Positions 650 through 42,765 of a stretch of 64,000 bases of DNA are shown piece after piece (within the stretch, counting starts at the first letter, position 1; every line of letters starts with the position of its first letter). The notes under the pieces are model-generated. The model did not search any database and was not told the DNA's origin. It saw only the letters and a list, made by a program, of their open reading frames with translations. A program made the translations under genes and the position numbers. The stretch is from Nitrospirota bacterium (GTDB lineage: Bacteria > Nitrospirota > Thermodesulfovibrionia > Thermodesulfovibrionales > Dissulfurispiraceae): contig WSNO01000008.1 in the NCBI GenBank assembly GCA_009773415.1, forward strand, positions 9,600 to 73,599. The letters are read 5' to 3'.

Positions 650-661
650 TTTCGTATCTAC

Positions 662-695
662 AAAAAGAAGCAGGGCGCGGATTTCTCCGCGCCCC
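662..695. terminator. GC-rich hairpin between convergent tolB and the rhodanese gene
   Basis: GGGCGCGGA-TTTC-TCCGCGCCC forms a 9-bp stem at 673..694. On the minus strand it is followed by TGCTTCTTTTTGT. Confidence 0.55.
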
Positions 696-742
696 GTCTG
701 TGCTGCTGAAACTCTGCTCTCTGCTTCCTGAAGCCTGTTTTG

Positions 743-2101
743 CTACTCCTTGCTGATTTCGTACCGGCCGTGCGGATCGATCTTGATATTGGCGTTCAGG
801 AATGACGCATCGTATCCGGCATTTTTCAACGCATGGTATGCGAGCTCCGCGCGCACGCCGGTCAGGCAATGCACCACGATTTTCTTGTCTTTCGGAATCT
901 CGGCCAGCCGCTTCGGCACATCCTGCGTCGCGATGTTCTTCGCCCCAATCAGCATGCCGTTCTCAGCCTCTTCCGAATCACGGACGTCCAGTATCAGGAC
1001 ATTCTTCGGCTGAGTTTCGGCAATTTTCTTGAACTCCTCAACCGCGATTTCGCCCGGCCGCGGTTTCGGTTCATAGACGATTTTTGTCGGCATATCGCCG
1101 GAAGCTATCGTGTACCCGGCCTTCTTCCACTCCTTGAATCCTCCGTCAAGAACAACGATGTTTGTGAATCCGCCCCAGAAGCTGATCACTTCAAAAGCCT
1201 GAACGGCCGACTGCGTATCATACGAATAGAGAACTATCGGAGCTTTTTTGTCTTTCGGGAACTTGTCCACCGCATGACTCACGTGGGTGAGAGGAATCGA
1301 TATTGCCCCGGGAATATGCGCGGCTTTTGCTTCACTCGCCGGTCTCAAATCGACAATGATGGTGGGGATGTTGAACTTGACACGCTCCGTCAGGCACGGA
1401 ACGCACGCAATGGAAAGCTGCCCGGCCTGTTTCCACGCCGGTAAACCGTCAACATAGACCTTTACATTGGTATAACCGAGTTTCTCCGCCTTCCTGGCAG
1501 AGGATGGGCTCAGTCTTCAGGTGGGGCCGGCGCAGTAAAAGACAAGAGTTTTGTTCTTGTCGGCCGGCAGTTTGTCGATATGTTTGTCGAAGTCTGCGTC
1601 ATAAATATTGATGGCTCCCGGTATAGCACCTTCATAAAAACGGGATGCCGGTCGGGAATCTACAATCAGAGCGCTTCCTTTCTGCACAAGATCGATCATT
1701 TGCGACGTTGATACAAGCTTGTCGGGCGGAACGACTGCGGGCTGTTTGACCGACACCGCTTTTGCATACAGCTCCCCGTTCTTCTCAACATAGGTGACTG
1801 CGATTTCCTTTTCCTTCGGCATCTTGGCAAGCGGCTGGGCCCAACCGCTCAGTTTCGTGTCATCGTCGAATTTCACCGTCCAGATTGCGCCGGTGTTCAC
1901 GGCGAATGTCTCCGCTTTGCCGGAAATACTCCCGATCATCCCGCGCAGCACCTTGTCTGCCGCCGGATGGCACTGAGAGCAGGGCTTCAGAAGCGTCGGC
2001 TTCTGCGGCACCGGTTGCTGGGCAAACGCGGGCGCCGCAAAAAGCACTGCGCCTGCTGTAAACGCCAAAAGCCCCTTGAGAAATACGGAAGGTCTTTTCA
2101 T
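743..2101 (-). CDS. Secreted CXXCH (heme c motif) plus three-rhodanese-domain sulfurtransferase-like protein, read through an in-frame TGA (1517..1519) as candidate selenocysteine
   Basis: Track ORFs 1517..2185 and 743..1348 share one frame and are separated by a single TGA; the downstream ORF only begins at a TTG. The ATG at 2101 has a GGAGGA RBS. Other marks are a signal peptide (AFA|QQ), CSQCH at 1967..1981, and FYCAGPT-TGA-RLSPSSARKAEKLGYTNVKVYVDGLPAWKQAG. The third domain carries HCLTGVR. Confidence 0.6.
1476..1513 (-). promoter_or_regulatory. Candidate bacterial SECIS-like hairpin just 3' of the in-frame TGA
   Basis: The mRNA reads UGA-AGA-CUGAG-CCCAUC-CUCUGCC-AGGAA-GGCGGAG-AAA-CUCGG. 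This gives a 5-bp lower stem, an internal loop, a 7-bp upper stem and a G-containing apical loop 22-26 nt after the UGA. Confidence 0.45.
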
Positions 2102-2180
2102 AGGCTTAAATCCTCCTTTTTTGCATTGTGCATAGATAATATCTATATTTATAGCACATTTCAAAATTAATAAATGTATA

Positions 2181-2196
2181 AGCAATTCTTATGCCG
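2181..2196 (-). promoter_or_regulatory. Sigma-54 (-24/-12) promoter for the rhodanese gene
   Basis: The minus strand reads CGGCAT-AAGAA-TTGCT with GG-N10-GC spacing, about 80 nt upstream of the ATG at 2101. It is divergent from a sigma-54 activator gene. Confidence 0.6.
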
Positions 2197-2232: not shown

Positions 2233-3702
2233 ATGAACAAGGAAATATCAGTGAGAAAACAGAACATGTTCATAACAGGGAGCGTTAAAATGTTAACTGA
2301 TGTGTTAATATTTGGCATGAAGCAGTTAACGGTGAACAATGCGCCCGATCTCTTCAACAACGCCGGTTTTTTGAACAGCGTCATCGAAGCAATGTCCGAC
2401 GGACTCATGATTATCGACACTGACAGCACCATTCTTTTTTTCAACCGCGCCGCTGAAAACATCACGGGCTTTCGTCGTGAGGACGTTATCGGTCAAAAAT
2501 GCACGATGATCGACAGCGCCGTATGCAGCAAAAAAGTGAATTCCGGCAATCAGACAAAGTGCACGCTTTTTGAAAGCGGCAGCATTACTAAAATGCGCTG
2601 TCAGCTTCGGGCCGGTGACGGGCGCGAAATACAGCTCCTGAAGAACGCCGTGCTCCTGAAAAACTCCGACGGAGAAGTCATCGGTGCGGTCGAAGTAATG
2701 ACTGACGTTACATCTGTTTACGAGAAAGATCGCGAAATCGAACAGCTCAAGAGTGAACTGATGCAGGAATACGGGTTTATGGGACTTATCGGCACCAGCC
2801 TGCCCATGCAGCGCATGTTTGAGCAGATTCGCAATGCCGCGGCGAGCGAGGCTCCCATCGTAATCACGGGCGAGAGCGGTACCGGCAAAGAACTGGTGGC
2901 TCGCGCCGTGCATCGTCTCAGCCGTCGGCAGACGGGTCCGTTTGTGACGATCAACTGTGCCGCGCTGAATGAATTTCTTCTGGAGAGCGAGCTTTTTGGT
3001 CATGTCAAAGGCGCTTTTACCGGCGCAGTGCGCGACAGGCAGGGACGGTTCGAAGCGGCGCTGCACGGCAGCTTGTTCCTTGATGAAGTGGGCGACATGC
3101 CGCTCTCCATGCAGGTAAAGCTGCTTCGCGTGCTGCAGGAGCGGGAGATTGAGCGGGTCGGCGATCAGCGGACTATAAAGGTCGATGTCCGTTTGATGAG
3201 TGCAACGAACAGAAACATGGAAGAGTTGCTCGGTGCAGGAAAATTCCGCGAAGATCTCTTCTACCGCATCAATGTTATTCCGATTCATGTTCCGCCGCTC
3301 CGTGAACGCATCGAAGACGTTCCGCTCCTGATAAATCACCACCTGGAGCGGATCAATCAAATCAACAGGAAAGTCATTCATCATGTCAGTCCGAAGGCGC
3401 TTGAGTCGATAGAATCCTATTCATGGCCCGGCAATGTTCGCCAGTTGATCAACATGATCGAATATGCGACCATGACTGCAAAAGGAGACTCCATCGAACT
3501 GAGCGACCTCCCGGAATACCTCTTCAGACAAAAAGGGCCGGAGGCATCTCCTGCTCAAGCCGGAAGAGAACGCATCAGCAAAGCCAGGCTCGTCGCAGCC
3601 CTTGAACGTTTCGGGGGGAGCCGCACCCTGACAGCCCGGCATCTTGGCATCAGTCGCGTTACTCTGTGGAAGCTCATTAAAGAATTGAAAGTTGCGGTAT
3701 AA
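2233..3702 (+). CDS. PAS-domain sigma-54-dependent transcriptional activator (bEBP; start codon uncertain, 2251 or 2290 also possible)
   Basis: It has a PAS domain ([26 protein letters not shown]), an AAA+ sigma-54 interaction domain ([21 protein letters not shown]) and a C-terminal Fis-type HTH. Confidence 0.9.
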
Positions 3703-3747: not shown

Positions 3748-5334
3748 TCAGAACTGCACGTCAAAGGTAGCGTAAATATTCTGGGCTTTCTTCAGCGGCT
3801 GGAACATCTGCGGAGCGTACATGGTGGTGGTGAGGTCCGTAATCTTTACAGGCGCCCCCACCCAGTTGTTGCTGCCGGTGTAGTCAAAATCATAGTACTG
3901 GTAGCCTACCCGGAAGAATGCCTTGCCGAGCTTCGATACCGGCTTCTTCAGCAGTTCCTGGATGGCATAAATCTCGTATACACTGCCGCGGGTTCCGAGC
4001 TTGCTGGTCCACATGTCGTCAGATGCAGGGGTGAATGTGATCCAGTTTTTGGAGCCATGATTGTACTCAACGCCAATCTTGGTGCCGGTTGACGGAATAT
4101 CATACCGCGCGCCGGCATACAGGGCATATCCGGTTCTGGAGTTTCTTCCGGCCACGTTGTCCCACATCAGCCCATACTCAAGCATGCCGGGGAACCCGAT
4201 GATATTGGAATTCGGATGCGTTTTGCTCATGGCGGACGACATAAAGAGATTCAGGTTGCCGGGGCCAAGGTTGTCGATCTTCCCGGAAACAACCGCGCCG
4301 AACTGATCGATGTCGCCAAGGTTCGTGTTGCTGAGCGTGCCGAAGCCCGGGAACGTCATTGCAGAGAATTCCGGGAATGCAAAAATATCAAACCCTCTGC
4401 TGTACTGAACCTCTACCCGGAAGTTGTCGGTTTCGTAAGGAACAACATTGAAGCCAAGAAAATTGACATCCTTCATGCTATTTGCAGAACTCCTGAAGCC
4501 GCTGTCAAAACCCTTGCCGTAACACAGCTTCGCATAGAAGCCCGGCAGTGCATCAATGTCGGGGGCGACACCGAACGTAGCACCATCGAAGGCATAGTCG
4601 ATCAGAAGCCCCGGCACTCCTGCCGAGCCTGTCTTCTGGTTGTTCAGCCGAAGATTCGTCGGCACCCCGCCGGTCGACGGACGGCGTCCCACCGAGAACC
4701 AGATCGGCTGGTCTGCAATGTTGCTCCACGTCGCATATGCCTGATCTACCCGCAAGGCATTGTCGGACGGCGTGTGGGCTACGTTGCCGTCAAAGATACT
4801 CTGCTTGTCCGCAAAAAACGAATTTGCCCCCGACACAGGGCCACCGGTTTCATGTCCCCAGACCTTGTACATGAGCAGGCGTGTCTTCACCTGAATGTCC
4901 TCGGTCGCCTTGAACTTCATGTTCAGCCCGAGCCGGTTCGTCAAAAGCGCCTCGTTCTTGAACTTCTCTGATGGAACAAGAACAGGGGGAAGACCAAAGG
5001 GATTGACCGGGTTCGGTGTGAAGAAATCTGCTGATGTGCCGCTCATGTAGTCAAACCGTGTCCGGAAGTCTCCCCCAATCTCAAACCATGCAGGCCATCC
5101 CCCTGCCGACTCCTCTGTTTTCTTTTCCACTGCTGCGGTTTTCTTCTCGACGTTTCCAATCCGCTCTTCTTTTACGGTTTCTTTCTTCTGCAGCTCTCCC
5201 ATCTGCTGCTTTAACTGCTGCAGCTGCTGGGAAAGTTCTTCGATCTTCTTCATCAGGTCCGCCTGGTCCGCTGCCCACGTCGTGGCAGGTGCCAGGAGGA
5301 ACAGAGAAAGAAGCATCGCCATAGCTTTGCTCAT
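3748..5334 (-). CDS. Outer-membrane beta-barrel/porin-like protein with N-terminal coiled coil (resembles DUF3373-type proteins, from memory)
   Basis: It has a signal peptide (TTWA|AD) and a Q/K/E coiled coil. Alternating aromatic beta-strand patterns and a C-terminal ...YATFDVQF are typical of OMP barrels. A GGAGGTG RBS precedes the start. Confidence 0.7.
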   Translation of the reverse strand: MSKAMAMLLSLFLLAPATTWAADQADLMKKIEELSQQLQQLKQQMGELQKKETVKEERIGNVEKKTAAVEKKTEESAGGWPAWFEIGGDFRTRFDYMSGTSADFFTPNPVNPFGLPPVLVPSEKFKNEALLTNRLGLNMKFKATEDIQVKTRLLMYKVWGHETGGPVSGANSFFADKQSIFDGNVAHTPSDNALRVDQAYATWSNIADQPIWFSVGRRPSTGGVPTNLRLNNQKTGSAGVPGLLIDYAFDGATFGVAPDIDALPGFYAKLCYGKGFDSGFRSSANSMKDVNFLGFNVVPYETDNFRVEVQYSRGFDIFAFPEFSAMTFPGFGTLSNTNLGDIDQFGAVVSGKIDNLGPGNLNLFMSSAMSKTHPNSNIIGFPGMLEYGLMWDNVAGRNSRTGYALYAGARYDIPSTGTKIGVEYNHGSKNWITFTPASDDMWTSKLGTRGSVYEIYAIQELLKKPVSKLGKAFFRVGYQYYDFDYTGSNNWVGAPVKITDLTTTMYAPQMFQPLKKAQNIYATFDVQF

Positions 5335-7419: not shown

Positions 7420-9933
7420 GTGACAATCCGCTCCGTCAAAACATGGCTGACGCATATAGCAATAACGCTCTTCGCGATCACGATTTGCCTCTGCATTGCA
7501 GCACTCCTGATTCTGAACAGTCCCACCGTGCTGAATGCGGTCGCCGGCATATTCGGTTATGAAGTGCATGCCGAGAGCGCCTCTTTTTCACCGCTGTTCT
7601 CAGGAGAAATCAAAAACCTCTCGGTAAAAAAAGCGGGCGGCGATGAATTCACGCTTCTTTGCGAGAATGTGAATGTAAAAAATGCGCTCGATCTTATGCT
7701 CAAAGGAAATATTGATGCGCTGATTCTCGAAAAACCGAAACTCTCCTTCCGTATCGGCAAGAAAAAAAGCGACTTCTCTTTTCTGAACAAGCTGCCGGAT
7801 ATTCGCCTTCTTGATATCCGGAATGCCGAGGCAGTGCTCACATTTGAAGGCAATGAGCAGAAAGTGACGCTGAACTCCTTCAGCTTCACGCTCAAAAACT
7901 TTTCGCCGAAGCGCGGCGGAGAACTTGCGCTTGATTCAGCATTCTCTTTTGCCGACAGCCCGAGAAAAGAGCTTTCCGCTTCGGGGCAACTCAAAGCCGC
8001 CTTCAAGCTTGCCGGAGCATTCCCCCCGTACGGAACGGGAACGGCTGACCTCATGATTGACAATGCGTCGTATATGCTCGATGGAAAAAAATCGGCGGTA
8101 AGCGCACTGAAACTGACCGCCGACATGACATTTGATCGGAAAACCGAAACATTCACGCTTCGTTCGCTGAAAGGAACAAGCAGGCAGTTCGGCACTATTG
8201 GGGGAACAGCGCACGCGGTTCTGCGAGGCGACAACCCGTGGTCGGCTGCGCTCGCTGTTACGTCCATAGATTTTTCCCAGGCCTTCGCCGTCGCCTCACC
8301 GGTGCTGCCGGAGGAATACCGAACATGGACCATGCAGGGCAAGGGCGCTGTCGAGACAAGCCTAAGCGGCACCTATGCAAAGGAGCAGCTTGCAATGCAG
8401 GGAACGCTCACCTTTAATTTCAATGAAGCCGGCTTCAGTTCGCCCGATGCGGCAAAGGCTGCCCAGGGGGTCAGCGGCAAAGTCGTACTGAAACTGCAGT
8501 ACGGTCCGCAGGAGCAGAAAATTGCTTTTTCCGGCCAGGCTGAGCTTGCAGGGGGAGAATACCTCTGGGGGAAATTTTACAGCAATCTCGCAGGAAGAAG
8601 AGCAGGTCTGACCGCGGAGGGCTCTTTTTTTTTGAGCGAAAAACGACTCCAATTCTCTTCGACTGCAGATTTTTTCGGGATAGCAACCGCCGCACTTTCC
8701 TTTGACGGCACCGCTTCCGGCTGGAAAGCAGAGATAACCAATGCGGCAATTCGCAACGACCTCGCCGTCAGCCTTCTGCTGAAGGATTTTCTGGAAACTG
8801 CCAGCCCAACTTTGAAGGGTCTTTCTGTGGCAGGCGCAGCAACCATTTCTGCACAGATTGAGCGATCAACCGCCGGCACCTCCGTCAGAGGGATGCTGAA
8901 TATGCGAGACGCGTCGGTTCTGGTCCCCGGACGCGAGTTGTCGGTTGAGAAGGTTTCGATGCATCTGCCGCTCTGGCTGCTCCTGACCCCTGACGGCAAA
9001 ACGGTTCAGCACCCCGGTGAAAGCGAAAAGGGAACCGTCGAGATTTCCGGATTTCAGAAGGGAAAACTGAAGATAGCTAACATCACGGTTCCCCTGACCA
9101 TCAGCCGGAATTATATTCGCATTGCAGAACCGGTTTCTGTGCCGCTCTTTGGAGGCTCCTTCGTACTGTATCGCCTGGGGGTTGACGATATTCCGCATCC
9201 TTCCGTCGGCTTCCGCCTTGGCGTCCGGATTGAGAGTGTTGATCTGGGGCAGCTTACGTCAGAACTTTTCGACAACGAGTATGCCGGAACTATTTTTGCG
9301 GACACCGGCATTCTCCGCTATCGCAACGAACGGCTGGAAGGGGACGGTCAGTTTCTTGTCCGCGTATTCGGAGGAGAAATTTCATTTGAGGACTTCTTTT
9401 TCGATAAAATGTTTTCCTCCGGGCGCAGCTATGGAGGAACCGTTGTATTCTCTGCCATCAGCCTTGAGCAGGTGACACAGAAAATTCCGGTGGGACATAT
9501 GACCGGGATCATTCAGGGCTCGCTCAGAAATTTTGTGATGGAGTACGGCCAGCCGGCAAGTTTTGATCTTGATGTCCGGTCGGTTGATACAAGAGGCGTA
9601 AAGCAGAGGATCAGCATGGATGCTATAGAGAGCATCACCGTGCTCGGCACCGGCGTCAGGACCTCCGTGAAGGGAGGGCTGACATCTCTTTTCCGGGACT
9701 TTCCGTACAGCAAAATCGGGCTGAAGTGTTCACTTCGCAACGACGTGTTCATCATAAGGGGAACGGTTCAGTCCGGGGGAAAGGAATATATTGTCAAACG
9801 CGGATGGCTGCGCGGCGTCGACGTCATCAACCAGAACCCGGACAACAGAATCAGCTTTCAGGACATGCAGGAGCGTCTTGAGCGCATCATGAAGTCAGAA
9901 GGAGTCTCTCCGGGCATTCCCGAGGTGAAATGA
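7420..9933 (+). CDS. Large membrane-anchored AsmA-like / YdbH-like protein (putative intermembrane lipid transport)
   Basis: 837 aa with a single N-terminal TM helix and a long beta-rich body. It lies immediately upstream of a clear YdbL homolog, as in the E. coli ydbH-ynbE-ydbL operon. GTG start with a GGGAGAAG RBS. Confidence 0.6.
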   Translation: MTIRSVKTWLTHIAITLFAITICLCIAALLILNSPTVLNAVAGIFGYEVHAESASFSPLFSGEIKNLSVKKAGGDEFTLLCENVNVKNALDLMLKGNIDALILEKPKLSFRIGKKKSDFSFLNKLPDIRLLDIRNAEAVLTFEGNEQKVTLNSFSFTLKNFSPKRGGELALDSAFSFADSPRKELSASGQLKAAFKLAGAFPPYGTGTADLMIDNASYMLDGKKSAVSALKLTADMTFDRKTETFTLRSLKGTSRQFGTIGGTAHAVLRGDNPWSAALAVTSIDFSQAFAVASPVLPEEYRTWTMQGKGAVETSLSGTYAKEQLAMQGTLTFNFNEAGFSSPDAAKAAQGVSGKVVLKLQYGPQEQKIAFSGQAELAGGEYLWGKFYSNLAGRRAGLTAEGSFFLSEKRLQFSSTADFFGIATAALSFDGTASGWKAEITNAAIRNDLAVSLLLKDFLETASPTLKGLSVAGAATISAQIERSTAGTSVRGMLNMRDASVLVPGRELSVEKVSMHLPLWLLLTPDGKTVQHPGESEKGTVEISGFQKGKLKIANITVPLTISRNYIRIAEPVSVPLFGGSFVLYRLGVDDIPHPSVGFRLGVRIESVDLGQLTSELFDNEYAGTIFADTGILRYRNERLEGDGQFLVRVFGGEISFEDFFFDKMFSSGRSYGGTVVFSAISLEQVTQKIPVGHMTGIIQGSLRNFVMEYGQPASFDLDVRSVDTRGVKQRISMDAIESITVLGTGVRTSVKGGLTSLFRDFPYSKIGLKCSLRNDVFIIRGTVQSGGKEYIVKRGWLRGVDVINQNPDNRISFQDMQERLERIMKSEGVSPGIPEVK

Positions 9934-10124
9934 TTCTTGAGCTTCCGGCCGTTCTTTTTCCGGCACGCCCACCCTCTGCAAAATGCACCGGAAAAGGGTA
10001 AAATAGACGGCAGTACAGAAGCAATAAAAAGCGGAACTTCTGAACTATTGCGCGAAGTATAGTCAGCCTCAAATGGTTTCGAGATGCGCTTTTGGGTTTT
10101 ACATCTTTTATCAAGGAGGATTCC

Positions 10125-10712
10125 ATGACAAAAAAAGCAGTACTTGCAGCAGGGCTTCTTGTGCTCTTTCTGGTTTCATGCGTTACCGTCAACCTCTATT
10201 TCCCTGCATCAGAGATGAGAAAAGCTGCGGACAGGATGGTTGACGAGGAATTGAAGGGAAAACCTGCAGATCAGCAGCCGAAGAGCCAGCAGGGCAGCAG
10301 CGTGCGCGAACATATGAATCTCTTCAGCTTCGGCCCGGCAGCGGCGCACGCGGCTGAAGTCGACGTCAACGTCTCAACCCCGACCATTCGGGCACTCAGA
10401 GAATCACTGATTAACCGCTTCCAGGAACTGCGTCCCTATTTCGACAAAGGGGCTTTGGGCAGCACCAATAACGGGTATATCGCTATTCGCGACGCCTCCT
10501 CGCTGACGCTCCGCGAGCGGGCTGAGGTCAACACGCTTATTGATGCCCAGAACAAGGATCGCAAAGCACTGTATGAAGAAATTGTCGCAGCAAACCGGCT
10601 CGGGCGCGATGCGGTTCCCCGTGTTGAAAAGACATTTGCCGCGAGTTGGCGGGATCGTGCGCGGCCGGGATGGTGGGTGCAGCAGGACGACGGCCAGTGG
10701 ATGAGGAAGTAG
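10125..10712 (+). CDS. ydbL: Lipoprotein with C-terminal YdbL (DUF1318) domain
   Basis: It has an AAGGAGGA RBS and an LVSC lipobox. The C-terminus ...NKDRKALYEEIVAANRL...PGWWVQQDDGQWMRK matches E. coli YdbL (...GEYVQGINGKWVRK). Confidence 0.8.
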   Translation: MTKKAVLAAGLLVLFLVSCVTVNLYFPASEMRKAADRMVDEELKGKPADQQPKSQQGSSVREHMNLFSFGPAAAHAAEVDVNVSTPTIRALRESLINRFQELRPYFDKGALGSTNNGYIAIRDASSLTLRERAEVNTLIDAQNKDRKALYEEIVAANRLGRDAVPRVEKTFAASWRDRARPGWWVQQDDGQWMRK

Positions 10713-18766: not shown

Positions 18767-18811
18767 CCCGATCGGGAACGGTGGAAAGGATTACTGTTCC
18801 CGATCGGGAAC
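18767..18811. promoter_or_regulatory. Two copies of a CCCGATCGGGAAC palindrome (candidate enhancer/UAS; could alternatively fold as a terminator hairpin)
   Basis: The copies are CCCGATCGGGAAC at 18767..18779 and GTTCCCGATCGGGAAC at 18796..18811. Their centres are 32 bp apart, at about -88 and -120 from the predicted start of the sigma-54 promoter. Confidence 0.4.
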
Positions 18812-20167
18812 ATCCTCTATTCCGTAATCTTTCATTTTTTTCCAGAGCACCTTGCGGCTGATACCGAGAAGTTCCGCTGCCTCTTGCTTTTTTCCGGACG
18901 TGTCCTGCAGGGCTTTCAGGATACGCCTCTTTTCGAAACACCGGACGCTCTCCTCAAGCGAAAGGGGCGCTGAACCGCATGCCGACTCCTGCGCTCCCTG
19001 CAGCATTTCATCAGGAAGAACACGCACATCGACAACCCCGTCTTTTGCGAAAATTACGGCGCGCTCGAGGGCATGTTTCAGCTCGCGGACATTTCCGGGG
19101 TAACGATACGACAACAGCATGTCATATGCCTGCGGCGTAACCGCAAGGCTTCCCTTGTTGAACTGCTTTGAAAAGACCCGGACGAAATGGTCGATAAAAT
19201 AAGGGATATCCTCCGGACGTTCGCGCAGCGGCGGAAGCTTGATAGGAACGACATTGATGCGATAAAACAGATCGCTTCGAAAGGTTCCGGCAGCCACGCA
19301 CTCTTTAAGGTTCTTGCCCGAAGCGCAAATAGTACGAACATCGACCGGAATAGGCACATTGCTTCCAAGCCGGGTTACCGTTTTTTCTTCCAGCACGCGC
19401 AGCAGCTTCGGCTGAAGCGCCGGCGGAATATCGGCAATCTCATCGAAAAAAATCGACCCGCCATGTGCAAATTCGAACCTGCCTTTTCTCATTTCATGGG
19501 CCCCGGTAAACGCTCCTTTTTCCGCGCCGAAAAGCTCCGACTCAAACAGATTCTCCGGCATGGCAGCACAATTGATTTTTATAAACGGCTTATCGCTCCG
19601 GCCGCTCAGACCGTGGACAGCATTTGCGACCAGCTCTTTTCCGGTGCCGCTCTCTCCCTGAATCAGAACCGGAACATCAGTTGCTGCAACGGCCGCTGTC
19701 CGGTCGAACACATCCATCATTGCCGGACTTGCCCCGATAAAATCGGCAAACCCTCGCCTCTCTTTCAGGCTTTCACGGAGGCGAAAGACCTCATCTTCCA
19801 GCTTCCGGTATTTCAGATACCGTTCTACCGCGACAATCAGCTCGTCATTTGAAAACGGTTTCGCGATGTAGTCGAATGCGCCTTCCTTGATGGCCTTAAC
19901 CGCATCCCTTACCTCTGCATATGCGGTAATTATGATGACACCAGCATTCGGGGCTTTTTCGCGCGCGACCTCAAGGATTTCAAATCCGCTGCGCCGGGGC
20001 AATTTCAGATCGGTAATAATGAGATCAAAGCGCTCCCGGAGGATCGCATCAATGCCGTGATCCCCGTCCGCGCAGGGAGAAACGGCAAACCCTTGAGAAG
20101 TCAGGAAATGCTGCATGCCGAGCCGCATGGAAGGCTCATCCTCGATAAGCAGTATCTTTATTTTCAT
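18791..20167 (-). CDS. Sigma-54-dependent response regulator (REC-AAA+-HTH, NtrC family)
   Basis: It has a REC domain (LIITDLKLP), [20 protein letters not shown] and a C-terminal Fis-type HTH. Confidence 0.92.
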   Translation of the reverse strand: MKIKILLIEDEPSMRLGMQHFLTSQGFAVSPCADGDHGIDAILRERFDLIITDLKLPRRSGFEILEVAREKAPNAGVIIITAYAEVRDAVKAIKEGAFDYIAKPFSNDELIVAVERYLKYRKLEDEVFRLRESLKERRGFADFIGASPAMMDVFDRTAAVAATDVPVLIQGESGTGKELVANAVHGLSGRSDKPFIKINCAAMPENLFESELFGAEKGAFTGAHEMRKGRFEFAHGGSIFFDEIADIPPALQPKLLRVLEEKTVTRLGSNVPIPVDVRTICASGKNLKECVAAGTFRSDLFYRINVVPIKLPPLRERPEDIPYFIDHFVRVFSKQFNKGSLAVTPQAYDMLLSYRYPGNVRELKHALERAVIFAKDGVVDVRVLPDEMLQGAQESACGSAPLSLEESVRCFEKRRILKALQDTSGKKQEAAELLGISRKVLWKKMKDYGIEDVPDREQ

Positions 20168-39912: not shown

Positions 39913-41358
39913 ATGTCTGACCGCCAGACCTTCACTCTTTCTCTGAACATGAAGCTCATCATGATTATGCTGGGCCTCAGTTGTGCGCTCATCCTCATTT
40001 TGCTCTTCTTTTATACCCGGTTTGAAAAGAAGTTGTATCAGGAGCTTGAAGCGCAGGCCCGCGAACTGACCAAGGCTATCCAAATCGGCGTCGAAGAGGT
40101 GACCGGCCGGGGTGAAACCGATGAGGCCAGGCTCGAAAAATACCTGAAAAGCCTTGATGCAAAGGGGGTCAAGGAAATTTCCATTATCAGCAACGCCGAC
40201 GAAATCATCGCCAGCAGCGACCGTGCGAAGATAGGACCGATTACCCACCGGCGCAAGGAACTCATCATCAAGGCTGAGCTTGGCGAACCGGTCGTCGAGG
40301 AAGGGAAAGCCTATAACGTGATCATTCCCGTAGTTGCGGGAGACACGCAATATGGCTATATTCACCTGAAGATCAACCGCGATGACTTTTCCGAGCTGAT
40401 ACGAATAACGGCGATTCAGCGCATGCTTGCAACCCTTGTCGTTTTTTGTTTCGGCATAGTGGCGATTTTCTTCCTTGCCCGCCGGTATACGCGCCCTATC
40501 AACACGGTCGTTGATGCGGCGATTCGCGTTGCCGCGGGCGACCTGAACCAGCACATCCCGATTACGTCGCGGGACGAGATCGGCAAGCTCTCGGAAAGCT
40601 TCAATTACATGGTCGACAAGTTGCGCGAAAGCAGAACCCTGGAAGAAAAGCTCCGCGCTGCCGAACATCTCTCCGGCCTCGGCGAACTTTCCCGCAGCAT
40701 TGCTCATGAGATCCGGAATCCGCTGAATTTTATCAACCTCAGCATAGACCACCTTGGCGGCAAGTTCCGTCCGGCTGATGAGGAGCAGCAGAAGGCATAT
40801 TTGAACATCCTTCAGGGCATCAAGCAGGAAGTGCATCGCCTGAATAAACTGGTAAACGACTTTCTCATGTTCAGCCGGCCGATGAAGCTGAGCCGCCGGA
40901 CGCTTGCAGCGACGGCTCTCCTTGAGGATGTCATGGCGCTCATCTGGGCAAAAGCCGAAGCAGACGGCATTGCCATCATCAAGAACTATGCCGCTGACCA
41001 AGAGATTTCGGTTGACCCGGACCTATTTAAATCCTGTCTCATGAATGTGATCAGCAATGCGTTCCATGCGATGAACGCCTGCGGCAAGGACGGCATTCTG
41101 AAGGTCATGACCGAGTTTCATGACAACCTCTTTTCGGTCACGATAACCGACAACGGAGAAGGCGTTTCGGCCGATCAGATGGACAGAATCTTCGAGCCCT
41201 TTTTTTCGTCAAAACAATACGGGCTTGGCCTTGGCCTGCCGATGACCCGGAAAGTTATGGAAGAGCATGGGGGCGGAGTCGAGTTCAGGAGTGTCCCCGG
41301 CCAGGGAAGCGAAGTTCGGCTCTATCTGCCTGTTTCATTCAAGGGAACCCTTGAGTAG
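39913..41358 (+). CDS. Sensor histidine kinase (2 TM, periplasmic loop, HAMP, HisKA, HATPase)
   Basis: It has the H-box SIAHEIRNPLN, the N-box NAFHAM and the G-boxes DNGEG and GLGLGL. The start is uncertain (39913 or 39949). Confidence 0.88.
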   Translation: MSDRQTFTLSLNMKLIMIMLGLSCALILILLFFYTRFEKKLYQELEAQARELTKAIQIGVEEVTGRGETDEARLEKYLKSLDAKGVKEISIISNADEIIASSDRAKIGPITHRRKELIIKAELGEPVVEEGKAYNVIIPVVAGDTQYGYIHLKINRDDFSELIRITAIQRMLATLVVFCFGIVAIFFLARRYTRPINTVVDAAIRVAAGDLNQHIPITSRDEIGKLSESFNYMVDKLRESRTLEEKLRAAEHLSGLGELSRSIAHEIRNPLNFINLSIDHLGGKFRPADEEQQKAYLNILQGIKQEVHRLNKLVNDFLMFSRPMKLSRRTLAATALLEDVMALIWAKAEADGIAIIKNYAADQEISVDPDLFKSCLMNVISNAFHAMNACGKDGILKVMTEFHDNLFSVTITDNGEGVSADQMDRIFEPFFSSKQYGLGLGLPMTRKVMEEHGGGVEFRSVPGQGSEVRLYLPVSFKGTLE

Positions 41359-41373
41359 CGAAGGAGATATTCT

Positions 41374-42765
41374 ATGGCAGTAGTAGTGGTAGTGGATGAT
41401 GAACAGCGTCAGCGCGATATCCTGAAGGCTATTCTTGAAGATGAAGGGCATGAAGTCCATACTGCTCCGTCCGCCGAGGACGGACTTGGTGCCATTTGCA
41501 GACTGCAACCTGATGTGGTATTAAGCGATCTGAAAATGGGGGGGATGAGCGGCGTTGAGCTGCTGGGGAAGTTGCCCGATGACACGATACGCCCCGCTTT
41601 CATCCTGATGACCGCATTCGGAACCATCTCTTCAGCCGTTGAAGCCATGAAAAAAGGCGCCCTCGACTACCTTACTAAGCCGCTCGAAAAAGATGAAATA
41701 ATTCTTGCGGTGCGCAAGGCTGCCGAAAGGATTGAACTTCTAAAGGAAAATCTGCGGCTTCGCGATGAACTCTACGGAAAATTCAAGATTGAAGGCATTG
41801 TCGGCAAATCGCCGAAGATGCTCGAGATCATGGATGTTATCAGAAAAGTTGCATCTGCACCGGTAACCGTGCTCATACACGGAGAAAGCGGTACCGGGAA
41901 AGAGCTCGTTGCGCGGGCAATCCACTATAACAGCACACGGAAGAGCAGTCCCTTCACCGCCATAAACTGCGCGGCCATCCCGGAAAGTCTTATCGAAAGC
42001 GAATTGTTCGGCTATGAGGCGGGAGCCTTTACCGGCGCAACACACCGGAAAATCGGCCTCTTTGAAGCGTCCAACAAGGGCACTCTTTTTCTTGATGAGA
42101 TCGGCGACTTGCCCCCGCTCATGCAGACAAAGATTCTTCGCGTGCTGCAGGACAAAGAGGTGCGGCGCGTCGGCGGCAAGGACAGCCTGAAAGTCGATGT
42201 GCGCATTGTCACAGCGACCAATCGGGACCTCGAAAAAGATGTTCCTGCCGGCAGATTTCGCGAAGACCTTTATTACCGTCTGCGCGTGGTGACACTTGCC
42301 CTTCCGCCGCTGCGGGACCGCAAGGAAGACATTCCGGCGCTTGCCGTATTCTTTGTTGACAAGTACAACAGGGAATTCGGCAAGCGCATAAAAGGGGTTG
42401 CTGACAGCGCTCTGAAGGCACTGCTCGACTACCATTGGCCGGGGAACATCAGGCAGCTCGAAGCAATTATCGAACGCGCAGTATTGATGACAGACTCCGA
42501 TACCATTCAGCTGAAAGACATCAAGGATGAATTGCGCGTCAGGAGCGAAAAGAGCCTGCTCGATATGGATCTGCCTGATGAAGGAATCAATTTCGAGGAG
42601 ATGGAGCGGGAACTCCTGAAAAAGGCCATGGTGAAATCCAACAATGTAGCGGCTAAGGCCGCGCGGCTCCTCGGCATGAGCTACAAGACATTCTGGTACC
42701 GTCTCGAAAAATTCGGAATCAATACAGACTCCTCAAAAGAGGATAAACATCCCGAAAAAAGGTAG
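41374..42765 (+). CDS. Sigma-54-dependent response regulator (REC-AAA+-HTH)
   Basis: It has a REC domain (VVLSDLKMGG), [21 protein letters not shown] and a C-terminal HTH. Confidence 0.92.
   Translation: MAVVVVVDDEQRQRDILKAILEDEGHEVHTAPSAEDGLGAICRLQPDVVLSDLKMGGMSGVELLGKLPDDTIRPAFILMTAFGTISSAVEAMKKGALDYLTKPLEKDEIILAVRKAAERIELLKENLRLRDELYGKFKIEGIVGKSPKMLEIMDVIRKVASAPVTVLIHGESGTGKELVARAIHYNSTRKSSPFTAINCAAIPESLIESELFGYEAGAFTGATHRKIGLFEASNKGTLFLDEIGDLPPLMQTKILRVLQDKEVRRVGGKDSLKVDVRIVTATNRDLEKDVPAGRFREDLYYRLRVVTLALPPLRDRKEDIPALAVFFVDKYNREFGKRIKGVADSALKALLDYHWPGNIRQLEAIIERAVLMTDSDTIQLKDIKDELRVRSEKSLLDMDLPDEGINFEEMERELLKKAMVKSNNVAAKAARLLGMSYKTFWYRLEKFGINTDSSKEDKHPEKR

Follow-up and report, generated by a model that had tools for sequence, protein, structure and literature searches.

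On the minus strand of a 64,000-nucleotide stretch of contig WSNO01000008.1 from a Nitrospirota bacterium (the window), the gene at 743..2101 very probably encodes one secreted protein of 452 residues in which the UGA at codon 195 (1517..1519) specifies selenocysteine (Sec). The gene opens with an ATG at 2101..2099, behind a ribosome-binding site AGGAGG at about 2116..2111, and closes with a TAG at 745..743. Its 452 codons include the UGA, which at 1519..1517 is the sole in-frame TGA (codon 195 of 452). The original prediction had joined two open reading frames (ORFs) across this TGA into a single gene, and the join is confirmed by the sequence, by Pfam and by two further assemblies; the codon number that it implied was off by one, being 195 and not 196. 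Reading through the TGA gives the product ...KTLVFYCAGPT-U-RLSPSSARKAEKLGYTNV..., and with Cys placed at the TGA Pfam identified three rhodanese domains (165.8 bits), the first of which (residues 133-225) spans the codon. The 56 codons 3′ of the TGA contain no in-frame ATG, GTG or TTG, the first candidate start being a TTG at 1348. An assembly artefact can be dismissed as the source of the TGA, since the identical codon and flanks are present in ENA ERZ27284380 and in Logan SRR8438314. TGA is also the normal stop of 5 of the 33 long ORFs in the window, which indicates that the genetic code is standard. The only strong terminator, an intrinsic one with an 11-bp GC-rich stem and a T tract (661..696, minus strand), follows the TAG, with none comparable after the TGA. 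The gene is monocistronic, its 3′ end facing that of tolB in a convergent arrangement.

A protein search returned approximately 100 full-length homologues of around 450 residues containing the loop ...YC-x-G-x-T-C-x-[LM]-S..., whose second Cys occupies the TGA column, and all of the roughly 70 full-length database homologues that were aligned carry Cys at this position. Also found were proteins of 252-258 residues, 68-87% identical, that start just past the TGA column (MSPSSARKAEKLGY...). Scanning one genome per species yielded 31 loci with a relative of the gene, 30 of which were scored at the column (L031 is a C-terminal partial). A single in-frame TGA occupies exactly the same column in 24 of the 30 loci, at identities ranging from 33 to 95%. 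The carriers belong to the Dissulfurispiraceae, the Thermodesulfovibrionales, other Nitrospirota, Desulfobulbus, Desulfocapsa and Desulfopila, together with unclassified metagenome-assembled genomes (MAGs), and the TGA form spans at least two phyla. Cys is found at the column in five loci, L010, L020 (Casimicrobiaceae), L022 (Geothrix), L025 and L030 (Accumulibacter), and the Cys homologues by which the original prediction was to be checked are therefore present. The remaining locus, from Geomonas, has lost both loop cysteines; in Geomonas sp. Red32 (L023:8263-14000) the loop of domain 1 reads FYGADSFSFE. Using the 194-residue N-terminal fragment as the query we observed at least 107 distinct clusters at 90% identity ending exactly at ...[FY]C-x-G-x-T. 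Hence the Sec form is widespread, and gene callers split it systematically. The features expected of a bacterial selenoprotein are thus found together, with a UGA inside a conserved domain, a frame conserved on both sides of it, Sec/Cys pairs and recurrence of the UGA.

Two observations concern individual relatives. In the Desulfobulbales loci L025 and L027 (also L024) a full-length Cys paralogue and a Sec paralogue lie three genes apart, so that a single genome holds a natural pair of Sec and Cys forms. The intervening genes resemble Sua5/YwlC, a PurD-PurE fusion and a TetR-type regulator, as judged by reading the sequences rather than by a family search. In one orthologue (L012:6044-7387) a further in-frame TGA replaces a Trp that is present in all the others (GMPE*KKAG, compared with GLPAWKQAG); it may reflect misread sequence, a mutation on the way to a pseudogene or some other cause.

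Directly 3′ of the UGA lies a hairpin resembling a selenocysteine insertion sequence (SECIS) at 1474..1515 (minus strand). The lower stem, GACUGAG/CUCGGUU, pairs 1515..1509 with 1480..1474, and the apical stem, CUCUGCC/GGCGGAG, pairs 1502..1496 with 1490..1484 around an AGGAA loop (1495..1491). The stems and loop had been described in the original prediction, and the same fold was recovered here. In an alignment of 25 TGA forms, which begins 3 nt upstream of the TGA and extends 62 nt past its first base, the apical 7-bp stem is 93.7% paired, with compensatory double changes at three of its pairs, such as C-G replaced by U-A (six sequences) or by A-U (two). The covariation score was 0.271, compared with 0.164 for shuffled alignments, a value reached by none of 500 shuffles, and the covariation by which the prediction was to be checked is therefore present. 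Sliding the 3′ partners by 1-3 columns reduced the pairing to 32-45%, and RNAalifold independently predicted the same apical stem. The stem relies on synonymous third-codon positions, such as those of GCC and GCG for Ala and the closing G of AAG or CTG. Where Cys forms encode a near-identical peptide it has decayed, with folding energies of -2.8 (L010), -1.4 (L020) and 0.0 kcal/mol (L022) compared with -6 to -13 kcal/mol for the Sec forms. The apical stem begins 17 nt after the UGA and the G residues of its loop sit 25-26 nt from the U of the UGA, inside the range of roughly 16-37 nt used for bacterial SECIS prediction, and the conserved stem-loop expected of such an element is present. In the Desulfobulbales forms the loop is GGUCU, which we take to resemble the SECIS loop of E. 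coli fdhF. The significance of the hairpin derives from this comparison across species and not from the fold of the single sequence.

Several observations weigh against reading UGA195 as Sec. The single-sequence fold, at -19.8 kcal/mol (z = -1.4), is no better than that of shuffled sequences; the lower stem is weaker than the apical one (80% paired); the Cys form L030 retains a partial hairpin of -7.4 kcal/mol; and the hairpin lies within a conserved coding stretch, so its conservation is partly due to the protein. Rfam returned no match at its gathering threshold in the window and chance matches only around the hairpin, a null that is uninformative either way as Rfam holds no general bacterial SECIS family. 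Scanning the ORFs of the window for further genes bridged by a TGA gave no second convincing case. ARAGORN detected no tRNA at all in the 64 kb, and hence no tRNA-Sec, and no selA, selB or selD was seen among the window ORFs scanned (about half of them); ORFs of the size of SelA, SelB or SelD proved to be a TRAP permease, NtrC-type regulators, NuoN, TatD/radical SAM, RlmN and GAPDH proteins, and others. Since no Sec machinery was seen in the window, the ability of this organism to decode Sec is judged from its relatives, and the Thermodesulfovibrionia are reported to encode Sec proteins, including a Sec-type MccSep (PMC13510729). The absence of the machinery from a 64-kb window says little in itself.

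These observations have to be set beside what else the TGA could be. Were it a genuine stop, the locus would encode a 194-residue protein consisting of the CXXCH region and half a rhodanese, followed by a separate double-rhodanese protein. Every automated annotation splits the gene in this way and TGA does serve as a stop elsewhere in the window, but termination here would cut a rhodanese domain recognised by Pfam, and neither a start codon nor a ribosome-binding site is available for 56 codons downstream. The frame and the TGA column are moreover conserved in 24 loci, the Cys forms are continuous, and a covarying hairpin follows the codon, all of which makes a true stop very improbable. Substitution of one base in TGC or TGT would be enough to produce the TGA if the gene were a pseudogene or if the sequence had been misread or misassembled. 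Three assemblies agree on the TGA, however, and it is present in 24 species, both halves of the protein are under strong conservation and 107 database clusters end at the same column, and we consider this explanation to have almost no chance of being correct.

It is also conceivable that ribosomes pass the UGA without using selenium, through near-cognate insertion of Cys or Trp or through reassignment of the stop, giving a full-length product that lacks Sec. No Sec machinery was seen in the window, and substitution by Cys at UGA codons is known under selenium limitation. Set against this, TGA terminates other genes of the window, the hairpin has the geometry of a SECIS and disappears in just those forms that have Cys instead of the TGA, the alternation of Sec and Cys is a hallmark of selenoproteins, and the class is one for which Sec proteins have been reported (PMC13510729). 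Read-through of this kind seems very improbable. Insertion of Sec at UGA195 remains the reading best matched by the TGA column, the hairpin and the Cys homologues, which together strongly support what had been proposed from the window alone, a UGA-encoded Sec in a secreted protein combining a CXXCH motif with three rhodanese domains. As is usual in bacteria, SelB carrying Sec-tRNA(Sec) would bind the hairpin just 3′ of UGA195 and recode it.

The alignments also place the Sec residue within the active site. Domain 1 (1427..1705, minus strand; Pfam stretch 133-225) carries the loop C190-x4-U195-x2-S198, in which C190, G192, position 195 and S198 are nearly invariant among the homologues. Cys190 of the FYC motif (TGC codon at 1532..1534, minus strand) matches HC412 of domain 3 (HC412LTGVR) and the corresponding Cys of 6mxv, a canonical rhodanese, and Sec195 falls in the alignment as one extra residue ahead of the canonical Arg position. 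Judged by this alignment, C190 is the canonical rhodanese Cys and Sec195 lies five residues further on in the same loop (C-x4-U-x2-S), at what would be the second nucleophile position of a loop of the CxGPxC type. The original prediction had put Sec at the catalytic Cys itself; it was correct as to the active-site loop and mistaken as to the residue. To view this region we used an AlphaFold2 model of the Cys homologue P0001 (predicted local distance difference test score, pLDDT, of 91.4), which stands in for the Sec protein at 54% identity, and in it a C-E-G-T-T-C-R loop runs between the central strand and the next helix. Cys190 and Sec195 may act as a redox-active thiol/selenol pair, forming a selenenylsulfide.

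The all-Cys structural counterpart of domain 1 is BH2092 (PDB 3o3w/3nhv), which shares the CxGPxC loop (YCWGPAC compared with FYCAGPTU). BH2092 is, however, a single-domain Bacillus protein of unknown function without Sec, and past the motif it has Gly-Ala-Thr where the window protein has L-S-P. Sec-containing rhodaneses are themselves a catalogued class, divided into five forms in a 2026 review (PMC13188914), and the window gene belongs to this recognised class. Form 1, UxxS, is represented by WP_010941598.1 of Geobacter sulfurreducens (Zhang and Gladyshev 2005, as described in PMC13188914 and PMC9312934); forms 2 and 4 are UxxG and form 3 is CxU (NF041203) (PMC13188914); form 5 is TsoB, with UxxxxU (NF045694; Haft and Tolstoy 2025, as described in PMC13188914). 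Like form 1, the window protein has a PF00581 domain with one Sec followed by x-x-S, reading U-R-L-S here and U-A-M-S or U-G-M-S in its relatives, and the two may belong to the same family, a comparison made on the UxxS motif alone.

Among Sec-specific hidden Markov models (HMMs) the best relative of domain 1 is TsoB (E = 2.8e-19, residues 118-227). The spacing of the loop is equal in the two, U-x4-U in TsoB and C-x4-U here, which suggests that they may share the same two-chalcogen active-site loop. In contrast to TsoB, the window protein has no DsbD-like membrane domain, carries Cys rather than Sec at the first position, and has two extra rhodanese domains and a CXXCH/OB domain. Membership of NF045694 itself was rejected, as the score was 68.6 bits against a cut-off of 805 and the match covered the rhodanese part only. 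A likeness is also seen to NF041203 (rhodanese_LYCAU; E = 1.3e-25), a small rhodanese with Sec near the canonical Cys, but that family is single-domain with C-A-U (a spacing of 1), unlike the C-A-G-P-T-U (a spacing of 4) of the window protein. Here too membership was rejected, at 89.5 bits against a cut-off of 115 and with a mismatched motif. No NCBIfam model reaches its cut-off for the gene.

The protein begins with a predicted Sec-type signal peptide (MKRPSVFLKGLLAFTAGAVLFAAPAFA|QQ; 2021..2101, minus strand), which was read directly from the sequence without running a predictor and would direct export to the periplasm. The hydrophobic N-terminus is kept among orthologues, and in the Desulfobulbales forms it is lipobox-like. 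The N-terminal domain (1727..2020, minus strand) consists of a CXXCH motif followed by an oligonucleotide/oligosaccharide-binding (OB)-fold β-barrel. The motif reads CSQCH (1981..1967), with C41, C44 and H45 unchanged across 72 homologues; CX4CH stands in its place in a few relatives, and the domain is retained without CXXCH in the Desulfobulbales forms. An AlphaFold2 model of residues 28-125 (pLDDT 89.7) forms an OB-fold barrel that in the PDB is best matched by CusF and SilF, both periplasmic metallochaperones (E = 5e-4, TM 0.57-0.68). Neither the model nor the PDB matches revealed a cytochrome c fold in this domain, and the alignment of 72 homologues contains no conserved Met or His that could serve as distal haem ligand. 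The haem c motif of the original prediction thus stands as a CSQCH in an exported protein, the sequence mark of a c-type cytochrome, whereas the fold that adjoins it is CusF-like and not that of a cytochrome. Covalently bound haem is nevertheless plausible, because CXXCH interchanges with CX4CH and the protein is predicted to be exported.

Beyond domain 1, the second rhodanese domain (1097..1363, minus strand), identified by Pfam and HMM matches and by alignment, lacks the active-site Cys (VLYSYDT) and is presumably non-catalytic. The third (782..1048, minus strand), also matched by Pfam and HMM, has the canonical loop H-C412-x-T-G-x-R, with the Cys codon at 868..866, and its H411, C412, T414, G415 and R417 are conserved. 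A significant Pfam match to the rhodanese homology domain (PF00581) is thus accompanied by an active-site Cys in domain 1 (C190) and in domain 3 (C412). A Foldseek search with the whole protein retrieved generic multi-rhodanese proteins only. The linker after domain 1 (1391-1408, minus strand; residues 232-237) contains a C-V-P-C pair (IACVPCLTER) that is kept in close Nitrospirota relatives and absent from distant ones; this CxxC could be an additional redox or metal motif peculiar to the lineage.

The selenoprotein gene is probably under sigma-54 control. A -24/-12 element of the sigma-54 type, cGGCATaagaaTTGCt, lies at 2181..2196 (minus strand), approximately 95 nt upstream of the ATG. GGCA[TC]-N5-TTGC keeps this offset in at least seven loci (L001-L005, L011 and L021); in L008 its offset differs, and L014 and L015 carry a weaker version. 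Divergently transcribed upstream is an activator with PAS, sigma-54 AAA+ and helix-turn-helix domains (2233..3702, plus strand; NCBIfam and Pfam), and 10 Nitrospirota loci have the same activator, at 56-91% identity, as upstream neighbour, at least seven of them with the element at the shared offset. At the level of motif and neighbourhood, then, both a GG-N10-GC element and its cognate enhancer-binding protein are present, and the activator would drive expression through the conserved element. Counting against this is a sigma-70-like match, TTGAAA-17-TATTAT (2164..2136, minus strand; 10/12), located downstream of the sigma-54 element and ahead of the ribosome-binding site; 1.6 such matches are expected by chance per region, and in this AT-rich region it may be due to chance.

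Next to the activator is a gene for a DUF3373 outer-membrane protein (3748..5334, minus strand; Pfam PF11853, E = 1.5e-145), a possible functional partner. The DUF3373 gene is adjacent in close relatives as well, and in the Geomonas locus L023 it immediately precedes the tri-rhodanese gene, with both on one strand. That locus appears to be an operon of DUF3373, tri-rhodanese, PhsA-like and FeS-subunit genes, further genes and an ExtM-like multihaem cytochrome. In L014, L020 and L023 the locus also encodes a molybdoenzyme resembling PhsA and an FeS subunit resembling TtrB/DsrO, and in L014, L015 and L023 a multihaem cytochrome resembling ExtM, with all of these assignments falling below curated cut-offs. 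The carriers include sulfur-disproportionating lineages, namely the Dissulfurispiraceae, Desulfocapsa and Desulfobulbus. On the basis of these neighbours and of the sulfur habits of the carriers, the protein may function in the periplasmic handling of sulfane sulfur, polysulfide or thiosulfate, possibly also of selenium, a role against which it counts that gene neighbourhoods differ between lineages. A link to the MOLY/YTD marker clusters of sulfur disproportionation (PMC12998232) was considered and no direct evidence for it was found.

Related systems are the Sud/ExtH-type periplasmic sulfurtransferases, the Ext cluster of Geobacter and the Sec-haem polysulfide reductase MccSep (PMC13510729, PMC6148476). 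The likeness, at the level of genes, consists of a periplasmic rhodanese with an outer-membrane channel, Psr/Phs-like molybdoenzymes and, in some genomes, an ExtM-like cytochrome, and of the use of selenium in the respiration of sulfur compounds. The window protein is not itself an ExtH, as the HMM match is negligible (E = 0.003), and a relationship of the DUF3373 protein to ExtI is unsupported, with no NCBIfam match at all. In a working model, the substrate would enter through the DUF3373 outer-membrane protein, the Cys190/Sec195 pair would accept or reduce sulfane sulfur from polysulfide or thiosulfate, or possibly selenium, and the sulfur would then be handed to Cys412 of domain 3 or to periplasmic partner enzymes. 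A more speculative extension, which we think rather unlikely, is that the CXXCH binds a haem covalently, on an unusual OB-fold scaffold without a conserved distal ligand, and that this haem cooperates with the pair, being either ligated by the Cys or Sec or acting as the point of electron entry to the selenenylsulfide, in a haem-selenium reductase or transferase for polysulfide or sulfane sulfur. Such a haem-Sec protein would be a rhodanese-based analogue of MccSep chemistry in sulfur-disproportionating Nitrospirota and Desulfobulbales.

The exact 194-residue fragment is deposited in GenBank as KAF0183153.1, 'MAG: sulfur transferase selenocysteine-containing protein [Nitrospirae bacterium]', so at least one annotation had hinted at Sec and yet truncated the product. 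Other sources name the fragment 'rhodanese-like domain-containing protein', 'hypothetical' or, in one case, 'cytochrome c551/c552'. In view of this label and of the existing catalogue of Sec-rhodaneses (PMC13188914), the novelty claimed in the original prediction was overstated. For the four-domain architecture (CXXCH/OB and three rhodaneses) and the C-x4-U loop we found no match in the searchable literature. More than 100 database clusters, including those of PGAP-annotated MAGs, record the gene as two truncated 'rhodanese-like' fragments, and a curated Sec-aware model would correct the annotation of the family across the Nitrospirota and Desulfobacterota. The carriers are largely sulfur-reducing or sulfur-disproportionating organisms, and a putative Sec-bearing protein, probably regulated by sigma-54 and encoded beside an outer-membrane channel, offers a concrete candidate for their handling of polysulfide, thiosulfate or selenium. 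The C-x4-U loop, like the U-x4-U of TsoB, points to a two-chalcogen rhodanese mechanism. To a selenoprotein specialist the finding will be unsurprising; its value lies in annotation and in a candidate for sulfur-cycle biochemistry.

Further observations concern the surroundings of the gene. In four Thermodesulfovibrionales loci (L005, L006, L007 and L021) a gene that reads as MoaC-like (about 165 residues, by sequence reading), and would thus serve molybdenum-cofactor biosynthesis, adjoins the sigma-54 activator on its upstream side. The 64 kb contain three sigma-54 enhancer-binding proteins (2233-3702, 18791-20167 and 41374-42765), two of them response regulators of the NtrC/AtoC type, one of which has an adjoining histidine kinase at 39913..41358. 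An ORF of 837 residues at 7420-9933 (plus strand) has no NCBIfam match and sub-threshold Pfam matches only; it is 58-78% identical and syntenic in L002, L003 and L011, with a DUF1318 protein encoded next to it at 10092..10712.

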